Of a stretch of 64,000 nt of DNA, positions 45,001-57,000 are shown one piece after another. How positions within the stretch are numbered: the first letter of the stretch is position 1; each line of letters starts with the position of its first letter. Source of the stretch: Gemmatimonadota bacterium (lineage in GTDB: Bacteria; Gemmatimonadota; Gemmatimonadetes; Longimicrobiales; Gaopeijiaceae); contig JBDHHQ010000012.1 in assembly GCA_039589315.1 (NCBI GenBank), forward strand, positions 54,927 to 118,926, written 5' to 3'. The position numbers are program-made.

Positions 45001-48000
45001 GAGCGAATTCCAGATTCCCAACGGCGCCTCCCAGCGGTTCGCGTCCTGCAACTGGGAATACGCCTGTGCAGACCACCAGATCGGACGGAGTTGGCGGCGG
45101 AATTCCAGGCTGCCCGTCGGCTGGAAGGAGGTCGTCGCAACGCGAAACTCGCCGGTAAGCGTCTCGCGCGAGCCCATGGGATACGGGTACTCGATCCCCA
45201 GGGACAGGCCCTGCACCTGGTTGAAGCGGATGCCTCCCAGGACCGACATCCCCGCCTGTTTGAGCGTGGGTGGTGGCGGTCTCGACACGACCCGATCGAG
45301 CTCCCTGAGGAACGGATTGAGGGCGCGCCTGGGCACGGTGAAGTCCCATCCGGCGGAAAGGGGCGGTGGGACGTACGTGGCCCTGACGCTGTCCGGCAGC
45401 GGTACCGCTCGGTTCGCCAACGGCGCGATGCGGTCCCGAGATCGCTCGGCGGTCCATTCCATGCGGACGGGCATGGAGAATGCGTTTCCGAGCCACCGGA
45501 GGCTCCCTTCAGTGATCGCGCGGGAGGGATACGCCCGACCGCCAGGGTCCACGCGAAACTCCACCACCAGATAATCCACCGAGCCCCTGGCGTTTCTCGG
45601 CAAGAGGGGAACGTCCGCGAGGGGGCCACTGAGACCCGCCGAGAGATCCCAGGCGCCGTCCGGCCGGCCCACGAAGCGGATCAAACGATGGCTCGAAGCG
45701 TCGAACCAGAGGATGCCCGTGAACCCTCTCATGTCGGACCGGGGGGAGAACGCCACGCCGATCAGTGTGGTGGGCTCCGGGAGCTCCACACGGATCGTGT
45801 CCGTCCCTCGATAGCGGTATGTGAGGGAAGCCTCCGGGGCGATTGGATCGGCGAAAGTCTCGCCCAGGACCCGGATCTGTCCCGCGCCCGTGTAGATCAG
45901 CTCCTGGTTGGCGACTTCTTCCAGGTACAGATCCACCACGCCCAGAAACGCACGTTCCTCCTCCGGGTCCAGGGCCACGATCCCCTCCGACTCGAGGGAC
46001 GCGTCGCCCACCATCGGGCTTCCCCGGGCGCTGGCCACCAGGTCGAGCTCGGTCCGCCCGCCGGGGTGTAGCTGGAAGAGGGCCGCCTGCTCGCGGCGGA
46101 AGAGGCTGCGGTCACGCCAGAGCCACTGATCCGGGACTTCGAGCCCGACACGGATCCGGTGGGCGAGGACGAGCTGCAGACCCGATTGAATCAGGTGTCG
46201 ACGGTCCTCCCAAGCGGGAACGACGAGCTCCCTGGAGAGCGCATCAGCGAAGGTATCGGGAGGAGGAGGGGGAAGCTCCTGCGCAGTCGCGCCAGAGTGT
46301 GGAGGGAAGTGCAGCAGGAGCGTTACGAGGACGACCATCGGGGCGGGCCTCCGACCGGCGTCCATCACGATGCGCGCAGGGCCCTCGTTGGGCTCAACGC
46401 GGGCCCGCCGCCTCGGCGTCGTGGGTGAGTAGGTCGAACCACACCCACTTGCCCACGTGACGCTCGCCAGTTGGCTGGGGTGTGATGGGGGGAACGGTGT
46501 AGGTCGGGCCGCAGGCGCTCAGCAGAGCCAGGCCGAGGACGGTCGACGCGACGCCGGGCAGAGCCGCAACCCGAAGCGGCTGGCCCATCCACTTACCGGT
46601 AACCCTCGCCAGTAGATGTCCTGCGCGCCCGCTGCCCCTCGGACCGCCCGGGCGCACCGCTCCCGGATCCGCGCACAGGTGCGGAGGGACCGTTGCTCCG
46701 ACGGTGGTCCGGGCCCGGCGCCCCAGGGGTCGGGCCATGGCTAGTGCTCCACCTCCAGCACCTCGGGCCTCAGAACCTCCAGCACGTAGTAGGCCGCGCC
46801 GTCGATCTCCCGTGGTGTGATCCCCGCTACGCCCCACGTGGGCATCCCCGACTCGTGGCCCACGAATACCCGGTGCCGCACTGCGTTCAGGCTGTCCGCC
46901 CAGGGCCAGTCGGGCTCCACGAGGCTGGGTACGTCCAACCCTCGCTCACCGGCATAAGGGGTGCCGCCTTCGCCCAGGGTCCCGTGGCAGTTCCGGCACT
47001 TCGCCGCGTACGTCATATTGCCGGCCGTGGACCGGGCCAAGTCGCTTTCCCAGGCGACGGAGTCGAAGAGGGACTCGGAGTAGCGCTCTTCCGCCGCCGT
47101 GACGCGTTCGGCCCGGTCCGGGGGGTCGAAGGTCTTTTCCTTCTTGCAGGCGCTCACCGCGAGCACCGCCGCCAGCGTCAGGGCATGGTACCGCTTCATG
47201 GCCCGCTTCCGTTCTCGTTGGGGCGCAGCAGCGACGCACCGGGAGCCAGCTTCTGAGCCTGCTGGAACGCGGAATCGGCCGCTTCGGTGTTGCCCCGCAT
47301 CGTCTCCGTCATGTAGACGCCGAACCAGCCCGCCGCGAGATCCGGCGCCAGCTCGGTCACCCGCCGGTAGTGACGGACAGCCCGGTCCATGTCCCGTGCC
47401 CGAAAGGCCACGTTGCCGCTGTCCAACTGGGCTACGGTCTCCGGGTCGAGATCAGCCCGCGCTTCCTCGGCAGCCTGCAGGTCGATGGTATCGGTGCGCT
47501 GGTCCTCCGGTGCGCAACCGACCACGGCAACCGCGAGCGCGAGCACCGGCCATCCTGCCCTCCACTTCATCGTCCGGGCTCCAGGGGATCAGTGAGATGA
47601 CAGGCGAGACATACCGCAGGGTTCCGTTCCTGGGCCCGCCGGGCGTCGAAGTCCGGCCCGTGGGGGCTCACCTGGAAGGCCCCGGTCTGGGAGTGACACT
47701 GTAGGCACTCCCGTTGTGCGTGACACGTCTGGCACGTCTCCAGGTATTGGCGCGCAGCCTGCCCGTGACGGAGAAGCCAGACGGGCTCGGCATCGTGATA
47801 ACCTACCGCAAGGCGTCCTCCGGCGCTCCCCAGGCCCGACTCGACGTGACACGCCCGGCAGAAGACCTCTGTGGAGTGGCAGTTCGCACACTCCATGTTC
47901 CGGCCATACGAGTCCGTCGCGTGCCGCTGGACGAAGTTGGCCTCGTGGAAGGCCGGTGCGCGAGCTTCGTCGTGGCAGTCGTTGCAGAAGGGCGTGGTGT

Positions 48001-54000: not shown

Positions 54001-57000
54001 ACGGCCACGGCTCCTCCGGCGCTCTCCACGGTCCCCTCGAAGGACACGAAGGCGACGCGGCCATCGGGTCGGAGGGCGACCCCGTGCGGATTGGGCGCGT
54101 CAGGGAGCGGAATGCGAGCACGCTCGGTGAGCGTCGGCACGTCGACCAGGGAGAGGGACCCCCCCATCCGGTTCACGACTACCGCGGCCGAGCCGCCCGG
54201 CGTCAAGGCCACCTGCGTGGGCATCTCGCCCACCGGCACTGAGCCCTCCGTCCGGCCCTCCGTGCTGAACGCCCGGACCTCGTGGGCAGAGGCCAGGGTC
54301 ACCAGGAGCGCATCACCATCCCGGATCCAGACCAGGTTCAGCGGCTTGAGCCGGGGCTGGCCGGCGGGTCCGGTCTGGGCGTCGACCGGGAAGCGCGAGA
54401 CGATCTCCAGGGTCACGCCGTCGAGAACGACCACCTCGTCGCTCAAGGAGCAGGTGATCCCCACCAGCCTGCCCGCCGGATGGACCACGGCATCATGGGG
54501 GGCGGGGCAGATGGTGGGTGTCGCCTCTTCGACCAGGTCGTGCAGGCTGACGACCGACACCTGGCTGGGCGCCCCCTGACCGGTTCGCCAGTAGTCCGGG
54601 ATGAATGCCCTGGCGCCGTCGGGCGTGATGCCGATGCGGGCGGCGCCGGGCACGCCCAAACGGAGGCGGCCCACCAGTCGATCACCGTCGCTCTCGAACT
54701 TCCACAGCGTTGGCTCACCGTGCGACAGGGTGGCGTACCAGTGGCGACCGTCCGGGGCCACGGCCAGCCCGTGGGGCTCGTCCGTCTCGCCGCGCCGCGG
54801 ATCCAGCGGAAGGGTGTCGAGCACTTGGCCGTCCCGGGCGTCGAGGACGAAGACGCGATCGGTCATGCCGCTCCCCAGGTAGACGCGTCCTTCGCCGTCG
54901 TCTGCCCCGCCGCACGACGCCAGGGAGGCTGCGAAAAGCGCGGCCACGACCGAGGCGCCAGCCCGACGATCCGGCCGACTCATGGGACTCGCGGGCTGAC
55001 GGCATGGGACAGACGGCTCGTGGTTGGCGCAGACGGGCTCATGAGTGGGATCGGCCCGTGGACGGGAGCGTCGGAGGCGCCGGGCAGGAAATCTCAGAAT
55101 GTGGGCTCGAGCACCAGGAGGCCCGAGTTCATGTCGCTGACGAAGAGCCGTCCCCCGGAGAGCTGCGGCGCCCAGGAACAGGTGGACTGGATGCCGGGAC
55201 AATCGCCCGCCGAGCCGTCGTAGACGAATCCCGTGAGCTCCCGGCCTTGCCGGTCGAGCTCACCCATGAGCTCTCCGTTCACGTCGAGCGCGCGGATGCC
55301 CCGGGCGTACCACGCCAGATAGAGGATTCCCCGGCTCTCGTCCAACCAGAAGTTGTGAGGCGTCGCACCCTGCACCCTGAAAGTGGCTACCTCCTCGGGC
55401 TGCAGCAGGTTGCGGACGTCGACGACGTGCGTCATGCCGGGCGAGGCGTGGTCCTCCTCGCCTACGAACACGTAGCCCGCCTCCGGCCAGTACCAGGCGT
55501 TGTGCGTCTGTCCCCCTGAGGTCGCGATCCGACTGACCTCCACCGGATTGGTGGGGGATCCCCCCCGGATCCCGTGCCCCACATCAAGGATGATCAGCCC
55601 CGCGTCCCAGTGAGACAGGAAGGCGAGCCCGTTCCGGACGTACACGTCGTGGAGGAAGCTCGACCCGCCGTAAAACGACGCCACTGGTCGGGGACCCGCG
55701 GGATCCGACACGTCCAGCACCCGGAGGCCGGCCGCCGCGTCCTTCCCGTCGACCACGACGTAGGCGTAGTTCCCGTCGAGCCACGCATTGTGGACGCCGG
55801 ACTCGAGCCCGGTGGTCAGGCGCGCCACGACCTGCGGCGCCGCCGGATCGGCGAGGCTCAGCAGCGACACGCCGTTCAGGCCGTCCAGGGACCCCTCGTG
55901 GGTGACGATGCCCAGCGCCCCGTCCGCCCGAACCTTGACGTCGTTCACCGTGCGGGCGTCGAGCAGGAGAGCGTCCTCGCGGACCGGTTGGGAGGGGTCC
56001 GTGATGCGCCAGGTGTGGAGGGTGTTTCCCGACGCCGTGGCGGACTTCACGCCCCAGGTGCCCTGGTAGGCGTAGTTGCCGTGAACCCAAAGGTCGGACG
56101 AGAAGCGGGTGTACTCGCCGCCTCGGCCCACGACGCTCATCCGGCCCGACAGGCCCCGGGTCGAGATCGTCACCGCAGTCGTGTCGGCGAGCGTGCCGGC
56201 TGTGGCCACGATCCGGGCCTCTCCGGGCGTATAGCCCACGAATTGGCCGGTGCCGCTGAAGAAGCCGGCGTTGGCCGGGAGCACGGACCAGCTGACGGCG
56301 ACTCCGGGAACGATCGCGCCGGACGCATCGGACACCTCGGCCGCGAAGGGCACCGCGTCACCCTGCCGCACGGCTCCGCTGCCCGCGGCGATCCTGATCT
56401 CGCCGCCGTCCACGGGGGGTGCGGCCTCCGCCACGTTGAATCGCAGCACCAGCCCGGCTGCCAGGCCTCCGGGGACGCGAGCTTCAACGAATGCGTTGTA
56501 CTCACCTGGTTGGGGCGCCGACGGGAGGCTGACGGAGAGGCTCACCTCGGCCATGGAGCCAGGATTCAGCGTGGAGATCTCCGAGGGATCGGCGGTCAAC
56601 ACCGAACCGGGCACGCCGTGCCCCGCCTCGTTCCGGACGCTGCCCGGGAGGATCAACACCGGACCCAGGGCCATGTCGCTCGGGTTCTCCACGTGGACGC
56701 TCACCTGTCGGCTGGCGCCCAGGTGCAGCTCGTCCGTGGAGAACCTGATGCGGGGCTCGAGACCCGGCGCTGTGGGATCCGAGTTGCAGGAAACCACCGC
56801 GAGGGCGGTCGAGACGGCCACGAGCAGCCTCGTCGAAGCTTTCCGCACGCTCTTCCTTCCCCCGTCGGTTGTCGCGTTGGCAGCGGGGACCGAGGCCGGT
56901 CCGGGGACCCAGGACACAGCAACGTCCCGACGCACCGGGCCCGAGTCCTTCAACCTACGTCGGCCTCACACGATAATGTCGAAAGCGCTACCTTTTTCAA

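Follow-up and report, generated by a model that had tools for sequence, protein, structure and literature searches.

Quinol oxidation is the usual job of NapC/NirT proteins, CymA of the Shewanella MtrCAB system being of this type; 6R2Q is the solved porin-cytochrome complex MtrAB. In Geobacter, the Pcc/Ext clusters (OmaB-OmbB-OmcB) are of independent origin from Mtr, and reportedly (Shi et al. 2014) they place a porin-like protein of about 20 strands between periplasmic and lipoprotein multihaem cytochromes. MtoAB-MtoD-CymA(Mto) of Sideroxydans lithotrophicus combines a porin, multihaem cytochromes, a monohaem class-I cytochrome c and a NapC/NirT protein, and serves as a model for inward electron flow. 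The OcwA family is said, in the paper on OcwA, to reduce soluble nitrogen compounds too. An excerpt of PMC9250108 gives OmhA and OcwA as the names of the PDB entries 6qvm and 6i5b and describes both proteins as terminal reductases. For the Gemmatimonadota, iron-cycling potential is already in print: the parts of PMC11316326 and PMC8805035 used here report MtrABC operons, Cyc2 and homologues of DFE_461-465, and the authors of the former state there that annotation in this phylum cannot distinguish between the oxidation and the reduction of iron. A preliminary description of the present locus had spoken of a trait not shown for the phylum; this holds for physiology, whereas the genomic potential had been published in these sources.

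The locus lies in a window of 64,000 nucleotides on contig JBDHHQ010000012.1 (GCA_039589315.1) of a Gemmatimonadota bacterium (Gaopeijiaceae), and all coordinates are positions in this window. It comprises seven genes, all on the minus strand:

53919..54983, minus strand: prop, a YVTN-type beta-propeller lipoprotein of 354 aa; its gene lies upstream of h9, at a distance of 203 bases
52267..53715, minus strand: h9, a 482-aa nonahaem c-type cytochrome with the lipoprotein signal LVLAAC; first gene of the conserved core
50598..52256, minus strand: h20, a 552-aa protein that starts like NapC/NirT proteins (NrfH/CymA-like); it has a single transmembrane helix, at the N-terminus, and 20 haem motifs
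49099..50553, minus strand: barrel, a 484-aa predicted outer-membrane beta-barrel of an unnamed family
47567..49102, minus strand: h16, a 511-aa cytochrome (16 haem motifs) led by a type-I signal peptide; 4 bases are shared between its start and the barrel stop
47196..47570, minus strand: TPR124, a 124-aa TPR lipoprotein (lipobox AVVGC) overlapping h16 by 4 bases
46741..47199, minus strand: cytc152, a 152-aa monohaem class-I cytochrome c (lipobox AVSAC) with a 4-base overlap

Transcription therefore runs from prop through h9, h20 and barrel to h16, followed by TPR124 and then cytc152. The gaps from h9 to cytc152 measure 10, 44, -4, -4 and -4 bases. We propose, at a probability of roughly 0.65, that the six genes from h9 to cytc152 build a trans-envelope porin-cytochrome electron conduit with parts from no named conduit family; within this reading, they form one operon. 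The conduit probably links the respiratory chain to the cell exterior. Together, h9, h20 and h16 carry 45 haem motifs, far above chance: when each protein was shuffled 2000 times, means of 0.09 to 0.44 motifs and maxima of 2 to 4 resulted. The observations of the preliminary description hold: the genes lie where it had placed them and on the same strand, our motif recount returned its 16, 20 and 9 haems for h16, h20 and h9, and its Pfam values were reproduced for PF22113 in h16 and h20, for the NapC/NirT start of h20 and for the lack of a Pfam match in the 484-aa protein. It had listed the genes in the order opposite to transcription.

The 484-aa protein matched nothing in searches of Pfam and NCBIfam. 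The main caveat attached to the first account was the unproven barrel fold of this protein and of a second family-less protein elsewhere in the genome; both now have confident models of a large beta-barrel, and the caveat is thus removed. The AF2 model of the 484-aa protein is all-beta (pLDDT 89.4, pTM 0.83), with about 22 strands and no plug domain; its C-terminus, RGRRMRR, lacks an aromatic residue, a point against the conduit reading. In VIA-align, it superposed on plug-bearing 22-strand receptors, over the barrel part only (BtuB barrel: Z 18.1, rmsd 4.0, 357 aligned residues), on the pores of FimD (Z 16.7) and PapC (Z 16.4), and on MtrB (6r2q_B; Z 15.9, rmsd 4.8, 360 aligned residues).

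What does this barrel enclose? In the model of its complex with h16, the last third of h16 (residues 309-501) sits inside the barrel and touches it. The median score was 0.81 (runs 0.72, 0.84 and 0.81), the best of three controls scoring 0.00; the pLDDT of the partners was at least 71, and at least 75% of the contacts agreed between runs. Of 157 solved complexes, 116 reach the mark that is passed here; of 215 mismatched pairs, 2 do. The modelled interface is stable between runs and consists of about 350 contacts, spread over 21 of the barrel's 24 beta elements; the contact residues often alternate along a strand (105/107, 246/248, 404/406/408/410/412), the pattern expected of a side facing the lumen. 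The pass may partly reflect a learned likeness, since MtrAB is already solved; against this counts that no sequence relation between the barrel and MtrB was detectable with NCBIfam, and that MtrA is matched by h16 at no better than E 0.022. The barrel is thus modelled as a candidate sheath around h16, and h16 as a candidate wire from the periplasm into the barrel, a role like that of MtrA. All 16 motifs of h16 are of the CxxCH type, and exactly 16 were counted in 71 of 77 homologues. Its profile gave local matches only, to the 16-haem HmcA (2e84_A, E 5e-13), OmcA (E 4.6e-11) and MtrF (E 9.7e-8), and reached MtrA only at E 0.022.

The superposition on usher pores invites another explanation, namely that the pair of barrel and cytochrome is not a transmembrane conductor: the barrel might be a pore for cytochrome export or assembly, or the haem proteins might hold electrons in the periplasm like a capacitor or take part in detoxification. 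The TPR lipoprotein conserved in the operon would suit this idea, as would an Omp85-like protein and a TPR protein encoded downstream, which are found only in the present genome and its closest relative (locus L035). However, the plug and the N- and C-terminal domains of ushers have no counterpart in the 484-aa barrel, and an extensive interface that is stable from run to run suits a permanent complex better than passage. We consider this explanation very improbable.

At the inner membrane, h20 is, judging from its sequence, a candidate for a quinol dehydrogenase with a long chain of haems fused to it. PF03264, the NapC/NirT N-terminal region, matches residues 25-86 at 28.2 bits (cut-off 24.1), and NrfH (2j7a_C) aligns with residues 26-86 at E 0.045; the NrfH model TIGR03153 gives 39.2 bits, under its cut-off of 134.2. 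Hydrophobic 19-mers above 1.6 occur only at starts 15-25. The haem motifs (17 CxxCH and three CxxxxCH) leave no spare cysteine, and the same pattern is kept in 41 of 54 homologues. In 25 of 72 loci, no h20 adjoins the barrel; this counts against the conduit reading, as it makes a quinol link in cis dispensable.

At the other end, h9 would be the outer or terminal cytochrome, a candidate whose surface position we infer from its family and its lipobox. It has eight CxxCH motifs and one CxxxxCH, kept in 67 of 77 homologues. The profile of these 77 homologues matches OmhA (6qvm_A) at E 8.3e-20, with its positions 77-436 covered, and reaches E 6e-15 for OcwA (6i5b_A); with the single sequence, the values are E 3.3e-8 and E 7.9e-5. 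h9 is thus OcwA/OmhA-like. The same profile also matches octahaem nitrite reductase (E 2.7e-7), cytochrome c554 (E 6.1e-6) and hydroxylamine oxidoreductase (E 2.5e-5). Together with the NrfH-like N-terminus of h20, these matches would agree with a periplasmic system for a soluble nitrogen or sulfur compound, which had also been raised in the preliminary description: h9, as a protein of the OcwA/NrfA superfamily, would be a catalytic reductase fed by h20, the barrel would be no more than a porin for the substrate, and h16 would store electrons. Yet h9 matches OmhA and OcwA far better than the catalytic enzymes, h16 fills the lumen in the complex model and leaves no room for a solute channel, and no other pair is linked as tightly as barrel and h16, which adjoin in 71 of 72 distinct loci and here overlap by 4 bases. 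Moreover, 36 further haems would seem excessive for one periplasmic enzyme. A periplasmic system is therefore unlikely in our view.

The distribution of the genes is consistent with a conserved conduit. The barrel family, for which we found at least 521 homologues, is present in 183 of the 401 phylum genomes sampled and largely confined to Gemmatimonadota: none of the 30 nearest Atlas clusters has a name, and in the three clusters shown the commonest phylum is Gemmatimonadota. Across the 72 loci, h9 is present in 66, h20 in 47 and TPR124 in 50, and the order of the four core genes (h9, h20, barrel, h16) is conserved across the phylum. The gene set of the proposed conduit is thus common in Gemmatimonadota, a phylum of soil and sediment. 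In contrast, prop is outside the conserved core: a homologue adjoins the module in one of 100 related loci, the closest one (L035), and Pfam and NCBIfam yielded only weak generic propeller matches. TPR124 (TPR_2, 27.1 bits) is a conserved accessory, translationally coupled to h16, and possibly a scaffold or assembly factor.

The haem proteins had been called MtrC-type, a label that is not supported. PF22113 is found in h16 (55.1 bits, E 8.9e-15) and h20 (34.9 bits, E 1.4e-8), and it is a general haem-packing module: it exceeds its cut-off in 97 of the 401 sampled genomes (137 at E<=1e-5), where 7% of the phylum's genomes had been given before, and in the E. coli control genome too. The NCBIfam models for OmcA/MtrC, DmsE/MtrA and MtrB/PioB were reached by no protein here. 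Finally, h16 has a plain signal peptide and an MtrA-like place, and the candidate surface cytochrome is the OcwA/OmhA-like h9.

In the proposed conduit, h20 would sit in the inner membrane by its single NapC/NirT-type helix and exchange electrons with the quinone pool, its long haem chain extending into the periplasm. h16 would take these electrons, with its N-terminal eight haems hanging in the periplasm and its C-terminal eight inside the outer-membrane barrel, as modelled. At the outer membrane, h9 may then meet minerals, humics, electrodes or other cells. Given such a conduit, an outward flow that reduces extracellular acceptors is only slightly favoured over an inward or reversible one. 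For inward flow, a variant within the conduit reading and not to be added to it, the donors at the cell surface would be Fe(II), reduced minerals or humics, a cathode or a partner cell; their electrons would pass via h16 and h20 to the quinone pool, or via cytc152 to an oxidase, and the system would resemble the Mto cluster or, in Desulfovibrio ferrophilus, the DFE clusters. In favour of this is cytc152 (PF13442 Cytochrome_CBB3, 41.6 bits): this class-I monohaem lipoprotein is translationally coupled to the operon and occurs in 31 of 72 loci, all 31 of which have h20, and in none of the 25 without h20. The component types are those of the Mto cluster. Moreover, the genome encodes at least four haem-copper oxidases and a [NiFe] hydrogenase; the oxidases also count against the conduit reading as a whole, since the lifestyle can be explained without metal respiration. 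Electron uptake is the role given to the D. ferrophilus clusters in the part of PMC5815863 used here, and iron oxidation and reduction are inseparable by annotation in the phylum (PMC11316326, in part). On the other hand, OmhA and OcwA, to which h9 is related, are given as terminal reductases (excerpt of PMC9250108), NapC/NirT proteins are mostly quinol oxidisers, and no sequence feature fixes the direction. We regard inward flow as possible, if doubtful.

A second cluster, on contig C115, has the contents given for it before: four multihaem proteins (19, 4, 6 and 7 haems), an NHL propeller, a 643-aa protein and a two-component pair of a histidine kinase and a sigma54 response regulator. The 643-aa protein has no Pfam match and ends in RLSRSF; its model (pLDDT 94.2) is a barrel larger than the 484-aa one, with about 30 long strands. 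The 19-haem protein is NrfH-anchored. The tetrahaem protein (215 aa) gives a full-length match to OmcE at E 8.2e-26 and also matches another filament entry, 9yuq_N, at E 1.2e-22; 7TFS is OmcE of Geobacter sulfurreducens according to an excerpt of PMC12954529. An OmcE relative of full length is thus encoded in the same genome, next to another large barrel, which supports a conduit. By sequence, this cluster would be a separate conduit, better described as OmcE-nanowire-type. That both clusters encode porin-cytochrome conduits, as first suggested, is supported by the barrel models, the controlled model of h16 in its barrel and the conserved core order; the MtrC-type part of the suggestion is not supported.

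How do the two clusters compare with known systems? With Shewanella MtrCAB and CymA (6R2Q), the locus shares a NapC/NirT-type inner-membrane quinol dehydrogenase, a multihaem cytochrome through a large plugless barrel (here modelled, and superposing on MtrB) and a multihaem lipoprotein as outer partner. The differences are about 22 strands rather than 26, an insert of 16 haems rather than 10, an outer partner resembling OcwA/OmhA and not MtrC, and a quinol module fused to a 20-haem chain where Shewanella has tetrahaem CymA and soluble shuttles. The Geobacter Pcc/Ext clusters are of the same kind, a porin-like protein flanked by periplasmic and lipoprotein multihaem cytochromes, whereas their haem numbers differ and an inner-membrane anchor protein and a monohaem cytochrome c are encoded in the same operon here; no sequence relation was detected with the Pfam and NCBIfam libraries. 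The four component types of MtoAB-MtoD-CymA(Mto) recur in one cluster, with other protein families and haem numbers and no family membership found in NCBIfam. Like OcwA of Thermincola potens (6I5B; excerpt of PMC9250108), h9 has nine haem motifs; unlike OcwA and OmhA of Carboxydothermus ferrireducens (6QVM), which are on Gram-positive walls, it is a diderm lipoprotein encoded beside an outer-membrane barrel. As in DFE_448-451 and DFE_461-465 of D. ferrophilus (PMC5815863, in part), an NHL propeller adjoins multihaem cytochromes on C115; unlike the OmcE and D. ferrophilus systems, that cluster adds a barrel of about 30 strands, an NrfH-anchored 19-haem protein and a sigma54 two-component pair.

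A minus-strand operon of the window probably encodes a trans-envelope porin-cytochrome conduit, a reading to which we give a probability of about 0.65. The quinone pool would exchange electrons with the 20-haem cytochrome h20; they would then pass to the 16-haem cytochrome h16, threaded through a family-less beta-barrel, and finally to the 9-haem cytochrome h9 at the outer membrane. The preliminary description of the cluster already used window coordinates, and all cluster genes are on the minus strand:

Genes of the cluster in the window, with the names used here
54983..53919, minus strand: YVTN-type propeller lipoprotein of 354 aa (prop)
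53715..52267, minus strand: cytochrome of 482 aa with eight CxxCH and one CxxxxCH motif (h9)
52256..50598, minus strand: cytochrome of 552 aa with 17 CxxCH and three CxxxxCH motifs (h20)
50553..49099, minus strand: protein of 484 aa without haem motif (barrel)
49102..47567, minus strand: cytochrome of 511 aa with 16 CxxCH motifs (h16)
47570..47196, minus strand: TPR lipoprotein of 124 aa, translationally coupled, downstream of h16
47199..46741, minus strand: monohaem class-I cytochrome c lipoprotein of 152 aa, translationally coupled

From h9 onwards the genes are separated by 10, 44, -4, -4 and -4 bases, and prop lies 203 bases upstream of h9. A recount gave the same numbers of haem motifs as reported initially (16, 20 and 9 in h16, h20 and h9); shuffled versions of the three proteins reach a maximum of only two to four (2000 shuffles per protein). 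The Pfam values were also obtained again upon a new search. The analysis of conservation covered 72 distinct loci flanked by at least 4.5 kb on the upstream side and at least 3 kb on the downstream side; duplicates and short ones among 100 fetched were excluded. A gene was scored as present if tblastn gave a match at E<=1e-5 and a coverage of >50%. The barrel is accompanied by h16 in 71/72 loci, by h9 in 66/72, by the TPR protein in 50/72, by h20 in 47/72 and by the monohaem cytochrome c in 31/72, with an invariant gene order: h9 > (h20) > barrel > h16 > TPR > cytochrome c. The gene cluster is real, as had been proposed, and moreover conserved. The haem motifs are conserved as well: the 16 motifs are kept in 71 of 77 h16 homologues, the 8+1 pattern in 67 of 77 h9 homologues and the 17+3 pattern in 41 of 54 h20 homologues.

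Four further proteins, i. e. prop, an LVIVD protein, an Omp85-like protein and a 606-aa TPR protein, were rejected as core parts; L035, the closest relative, is the only other locus where they occur beside the module, and they are regarded as neighbours. A sigma-54 promoter upstream of h9 was discarded as well: there is a single -24/-12-like site (53846-53860, minus strand, two mismatches), and 60 such sites were observed across the window, with 50 +/- 7 expected. Among related loci, the strict sigma-54 motif was found in 0/78 upstream regions and a loose motif in 7/83, which is about background. The intergenic region upstream of the h9 homologue in L035 contains purine-rich direct repeats with a unit of about 45 bases; these were not found at the matching place upstream of h9 in the window. 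A unit of 55 bases is repeated in tandem at 63806-64000 (3.6 copies, 95% matches); the array continues past the window end and is preceded, from 63685, by more degenerate 18- and 36-base repeats. Genes for outer-membrane beta-barrel proteins (PF13505) are present upstream of the operon region at 31723-34350 (plus strand, 875 aa) and 41466-42068 (plus strand, 200 aa). A third multihaem gene of the window, at 37184-39574 on the plus strand and thus opposite to the operon and about 8 kb from it, encodes a protein of 796 aa with eight haem motifs in the N-terminal half, joined to HEAT and TPR repeats.

The 484-aa protein has no Pfam match and, at E<=0.01, no NCBIfam match. At least 521 homologues exist, and among the best 120 there is no Pfam domain and no name beyond "hypothetical". 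In a language-model atlas, all 30 nearest clusters lack a common Pfam family, and Gemmatimonadota is the commonest phylum in the three nearest clusters shown. An AlphaFold2 model based on an alignment of 119 homologues is all-beta and confident (pLDDT 89.4, pTM 0.83), and an exhaustive structural comparison listed membrane beta-barrels only, which bears out the initially putative barrel fold. The list is headed by TonB-dependent receptors with 22 strands, of which only the barrel parts align (BtuB: Z 18.1, 357 residues aligned at an rmsd of 4.0 A); the usher pore FimD (Z 16.7) and MtrB of the Mtr complex (Z 15.9, 360 residues aligned at an rmsd of 4.8 A) match as well, and Foldseek gave the same picture at low TM-scores. 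Since the protein has only 484 aa, there is no space for a plug domain. As modelled, the protein is a large plugless beta-barrel, and its gene is located next to those for multihaem cytochromes, the combination that is expected of a conduit.

How h16 and the barrel might fit together was predicted with barrel residues 21-484 (alignment A1) and h16 residues 62-511 (alignment A2, 76 sequences). The complex obtained a median score of 0.81 (runs 0.72, 0.84 and 0.81), compared to 0.00 for the best of three controls, with a partner pLDDT of at least 71 and at least 75% of the contacts common to the runs. Of 157 solved complexes, 116 attain the same mark, as do 2 of 215 mismatched pairs; these counts hold only roughly here because custom alignments were used. 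On the side of h16, the confident contacts cover residues 309-501, which bear its last eight haem motifs; on the side of the barrel, 21 of its 24 beta elements take part, often with contacts that alternate along the strand. This is the pattern of a protein enclosed by the lumen, and h16 is modelled as threaded into the barrel. A porin-cytochrome complex is among the solved structures, and part of the confidence may thus be learned likeness; as a counterpoint, neither the barrel nor h16 has a detectable sequence relation to MtrB or MtrA. The model also bears on two other explanations of the operon. The cytochromes might form a periplasmic enzyme system for nitrogen or sulphur compounds, or the assembly might have a role that does not involve conduction; with no free lumen in the model and the barrel-h16 pair as the invariant core of the loci, we consider the former unlikely and the latter very improbable as compared to a conduit.

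The name "MtrC-type" for the large cytochromes did not survive a closer look. h16 has 16 haems and a plain signal peptide without lipobox. The model TIGR03507, which we take to describe the OmcA/MtrC decahaem family with ten haems, four domains and a lipoprotein signal, has no match in h9, h16 or h20 at E<=0.01, and its best match anywhere in the genome has 21.7 bits at a cut-off of 209.3. The MtrA/DmsE decahaem model TIGR03508 has no match in h16 and reaches 50.1 bits in h9, with a cut-off of 192.2. For MtrB/PioB (TIGR03509), the whole genome has no match at E<=0.01, a negative that is weak by itself because 14 control genomes lack a match as well. The label had relied on PF22113 ("MtrC/MtrF domains II/IV"), a pentahaem module with a local match of 55 bits in h16. 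PF22113 is over its cut-off in 97/401 sampled genomes of the phylum, and it also exceeds the curated cut-off in an E. coli control genome. Since E. coli has, to our knowledge, no MtrC, a match is no sign of an MtrC-type protein, and PF22113 marks a haem-packing module. As a single sequence, h16 gave no meaningful match in the PDB, and its profile gave local matches only: to the 16-haem HmcA (E 5e-13), OmcA (E 4.6e-11), MtrF (E 9.7e-8) and MtrA (6r2q_A, E 0.022). What stands of the original interpretation is the probable porin-cytochrome conduit, with modelled barrel folds, a modelled h16 insertion and a conserved pair; the MtrC-type label has to be removed from it.

The two cytochromes encoded ahead of the barrel are candidates for the ends of the conduit. 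h9 has a lipobox and would be located at the cell surface. Its family profile matches OmhA (6qvm_A, E 8.3e-20 over 360 profile positions) and OcwA (6i5b_A, E 6e-15), and far more weakly MtrA, octahaem nitrite reductase, cytochrome c554 and hydroxylamine oxidoreductase. By these profiles, h9 is a relative of the OcwA/OmhA multihaem cytochromes across the core. h20 possesses a single N-terminal hydrophobic helix that starts at residues 15-25. PF03264 scores 28.2 bits in h20 (cut-off 24.1), with only profile positions 7-75 of 174 covered, the NrfH model TIGR03153 scores 39.2 bits, under its cut-off of 134.2, and NrfH itself (2j7a_C) matches with E 0.045. By the helix, the partial PF03264 match and the NrfH matches, the N-terminal module of h20 resembles NapC/NirT proteins, and the remainder is a haem chain of another kind and far greater length; h20 would be a NapC/NirT-like anchor joined to this chain and would provide the link to quinol.

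The monohaem cytochrome c is restricted to loci with h20 (31/31 loci, compared to 0/25 loci without h20), suggesting that the pair act together. The genome also encodes at least four haem-copper oxidases and a [NiFe] hydrogenase; in combination with this tie, they make inward electron uptake a serious variant of the conduit. One match to subunit I of a haem-copper oxidase in this genome (G000, C43:100013-101420) consists of two adjacent pieces in different frames, caused by a frameshift or else by a fault in the assembly. For a conduit directed outwards, it is tempting to speculate about a hard-wired chain of 45 haems that would lead electrons out of the quinone pool as far as the cell surface and need no soluble periplasmic carrier: h20 would span the periplasm and dock directly on h16 in the barrel, followed by the OcwA-like surface lipoprotein. 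We regard this extension as rather doubtful.

A second multihaem cluster of the genome, on contig C115, has the make-up that was initially described, i. e. 19-, 4-, 6- and 7-haem proteins, an NHL propeller and a family-less protein of 643 aa. The GC content of the contig (66.5%) is in line with that of the genome (67.2 +/- 1.5%, 197 contigs >5 kb). For the 643-aa protein, an exhaustive HMMER search found 550 relatives and a word-based search only three. Its model (alignment of 97 relatives, pLDDT 94.2) shows about 30 long strands and a small insert, and its structural matches are membrane barrels throughout, so that the barrel fold suggested for this protein was confirmed at the model level, too. 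The best matches by rmsd are the 26-strand MtrB (Z 13.9, rmsd 5.6 A, 402 aligned) and the 26-strand LptD (Z 11.8, rmsd 6.0 A). The two barrels of the genome were rejected as paralogues: a search of the genome with the window barrel gave no second match at E<=10, and the two belong to different families. The 7-haem neighbour of the C115 barrel has a weak MtrA match (E 1.3e-3), the 19-haem protein an NrfH-like start (E 1.6e-5), and the 6-haem protein is, like 3ov0_A, a polymer of c7 domains (E 3.3e-23). The 215-aa protein with four haem motifs aligns from end to end with 7tfs_A (E 8.2e-26, residues 4-215/215 with 3-232/232), the OmcE nanowire subunit (PMC12954529), and matches a second filament entry. 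It is thus related to the OmcE nanowire cytochrome over its full length. Such relatives are rare in the phylum (23/401 genomes; 1/70 in the own family, this genome not counted).

Gemmatimonadota, few of which have been cultured, are abundant members of soil and sediment communities. We know of no member for which respiration of minerals or electrodes has been demonstrated. The barrel family is present in 183/401 sampled genomes of the phylum (about 46%), with only 12/70 genomes in the window's own family and 117/166 in the largest family. A scan with one genome per prokaryote species confirmed 235 barrel relatives; the best 80 are all from metagenome-assembled genomes, 77 with titles naming Gemmatimonadota, Gemmatimonadales or Longimicrobiales and three with "uncultured bacterium". 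The module would give the phylum its own electron route to iron or manganese minerals, humics or partner cells. If the hard-wired chain were true, extracellular electron exchange would, given the frequency of the barrel family, be a mainstream and overlooked trait of a very abundant soil and sediment phylum, and the genome would own two independent routes, the window module and an OmcE-type nanowire.

Literature searches that joined Gemmatimonadota with extracellular electron transfer gave no description of the module in main texts. As far as the accessible text goes, marine Gemmatimonadota have three MtrABC operons and widely annotated homologues of Cyc2 and DFE_461-465, and oxidation and reduction are held to be indistinguishable there (PMC11316326). 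Excerpts of other studies report one Gemmatimonadetes MtrCAB, thought to be acquired by gene transfer (PMC8805035), and phylum counts of 0, 1 and 2 homologues for CymA, CbcL and ImcH (PMC6295460). In cave genomes, 26 porin-cytochrome clusters have been found, with the phyla given in a figure only (available part of PMC13264449), and some of them may be this module. New in our work are the barrel folds, the modelled insertion and the relations to OcwA/OmhA and OmcE. Searches for Mtr, Pcc or Cyc2 homologues overlook the module, which combines a barrel family without a name with a 16-haem insert and a protein related to a surface reductase of Gram-positive cells.

The combination of NHL propellers and multihaem cytochromes on C115 is paralleled by the electron-uptake clusters of Desulfovibrio ferrophilus (PMC5815863, in the portion available). 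As described in the accessible part of PMC9250108, OcwA (6I5B) has nine haems, the number of haem motifs in h9, whereas OmhA (6QVM) has eleven; moreover, in OcwA the conserved distal histidines H281/H282 and H380/H381 are located at two penta-coordinated haems. The MtrCAB system of Shewanella is built from the MtrB/PioB, MtrA/DmsE and OmcA/MtrC families, and neither the barrel nor h16, h9 or h20 reaches the models of these. The module would add a fourth independent answer to the problem of electron crossing at the outer membrane, besides Mtr, Pcc/Ext and Cyc2.
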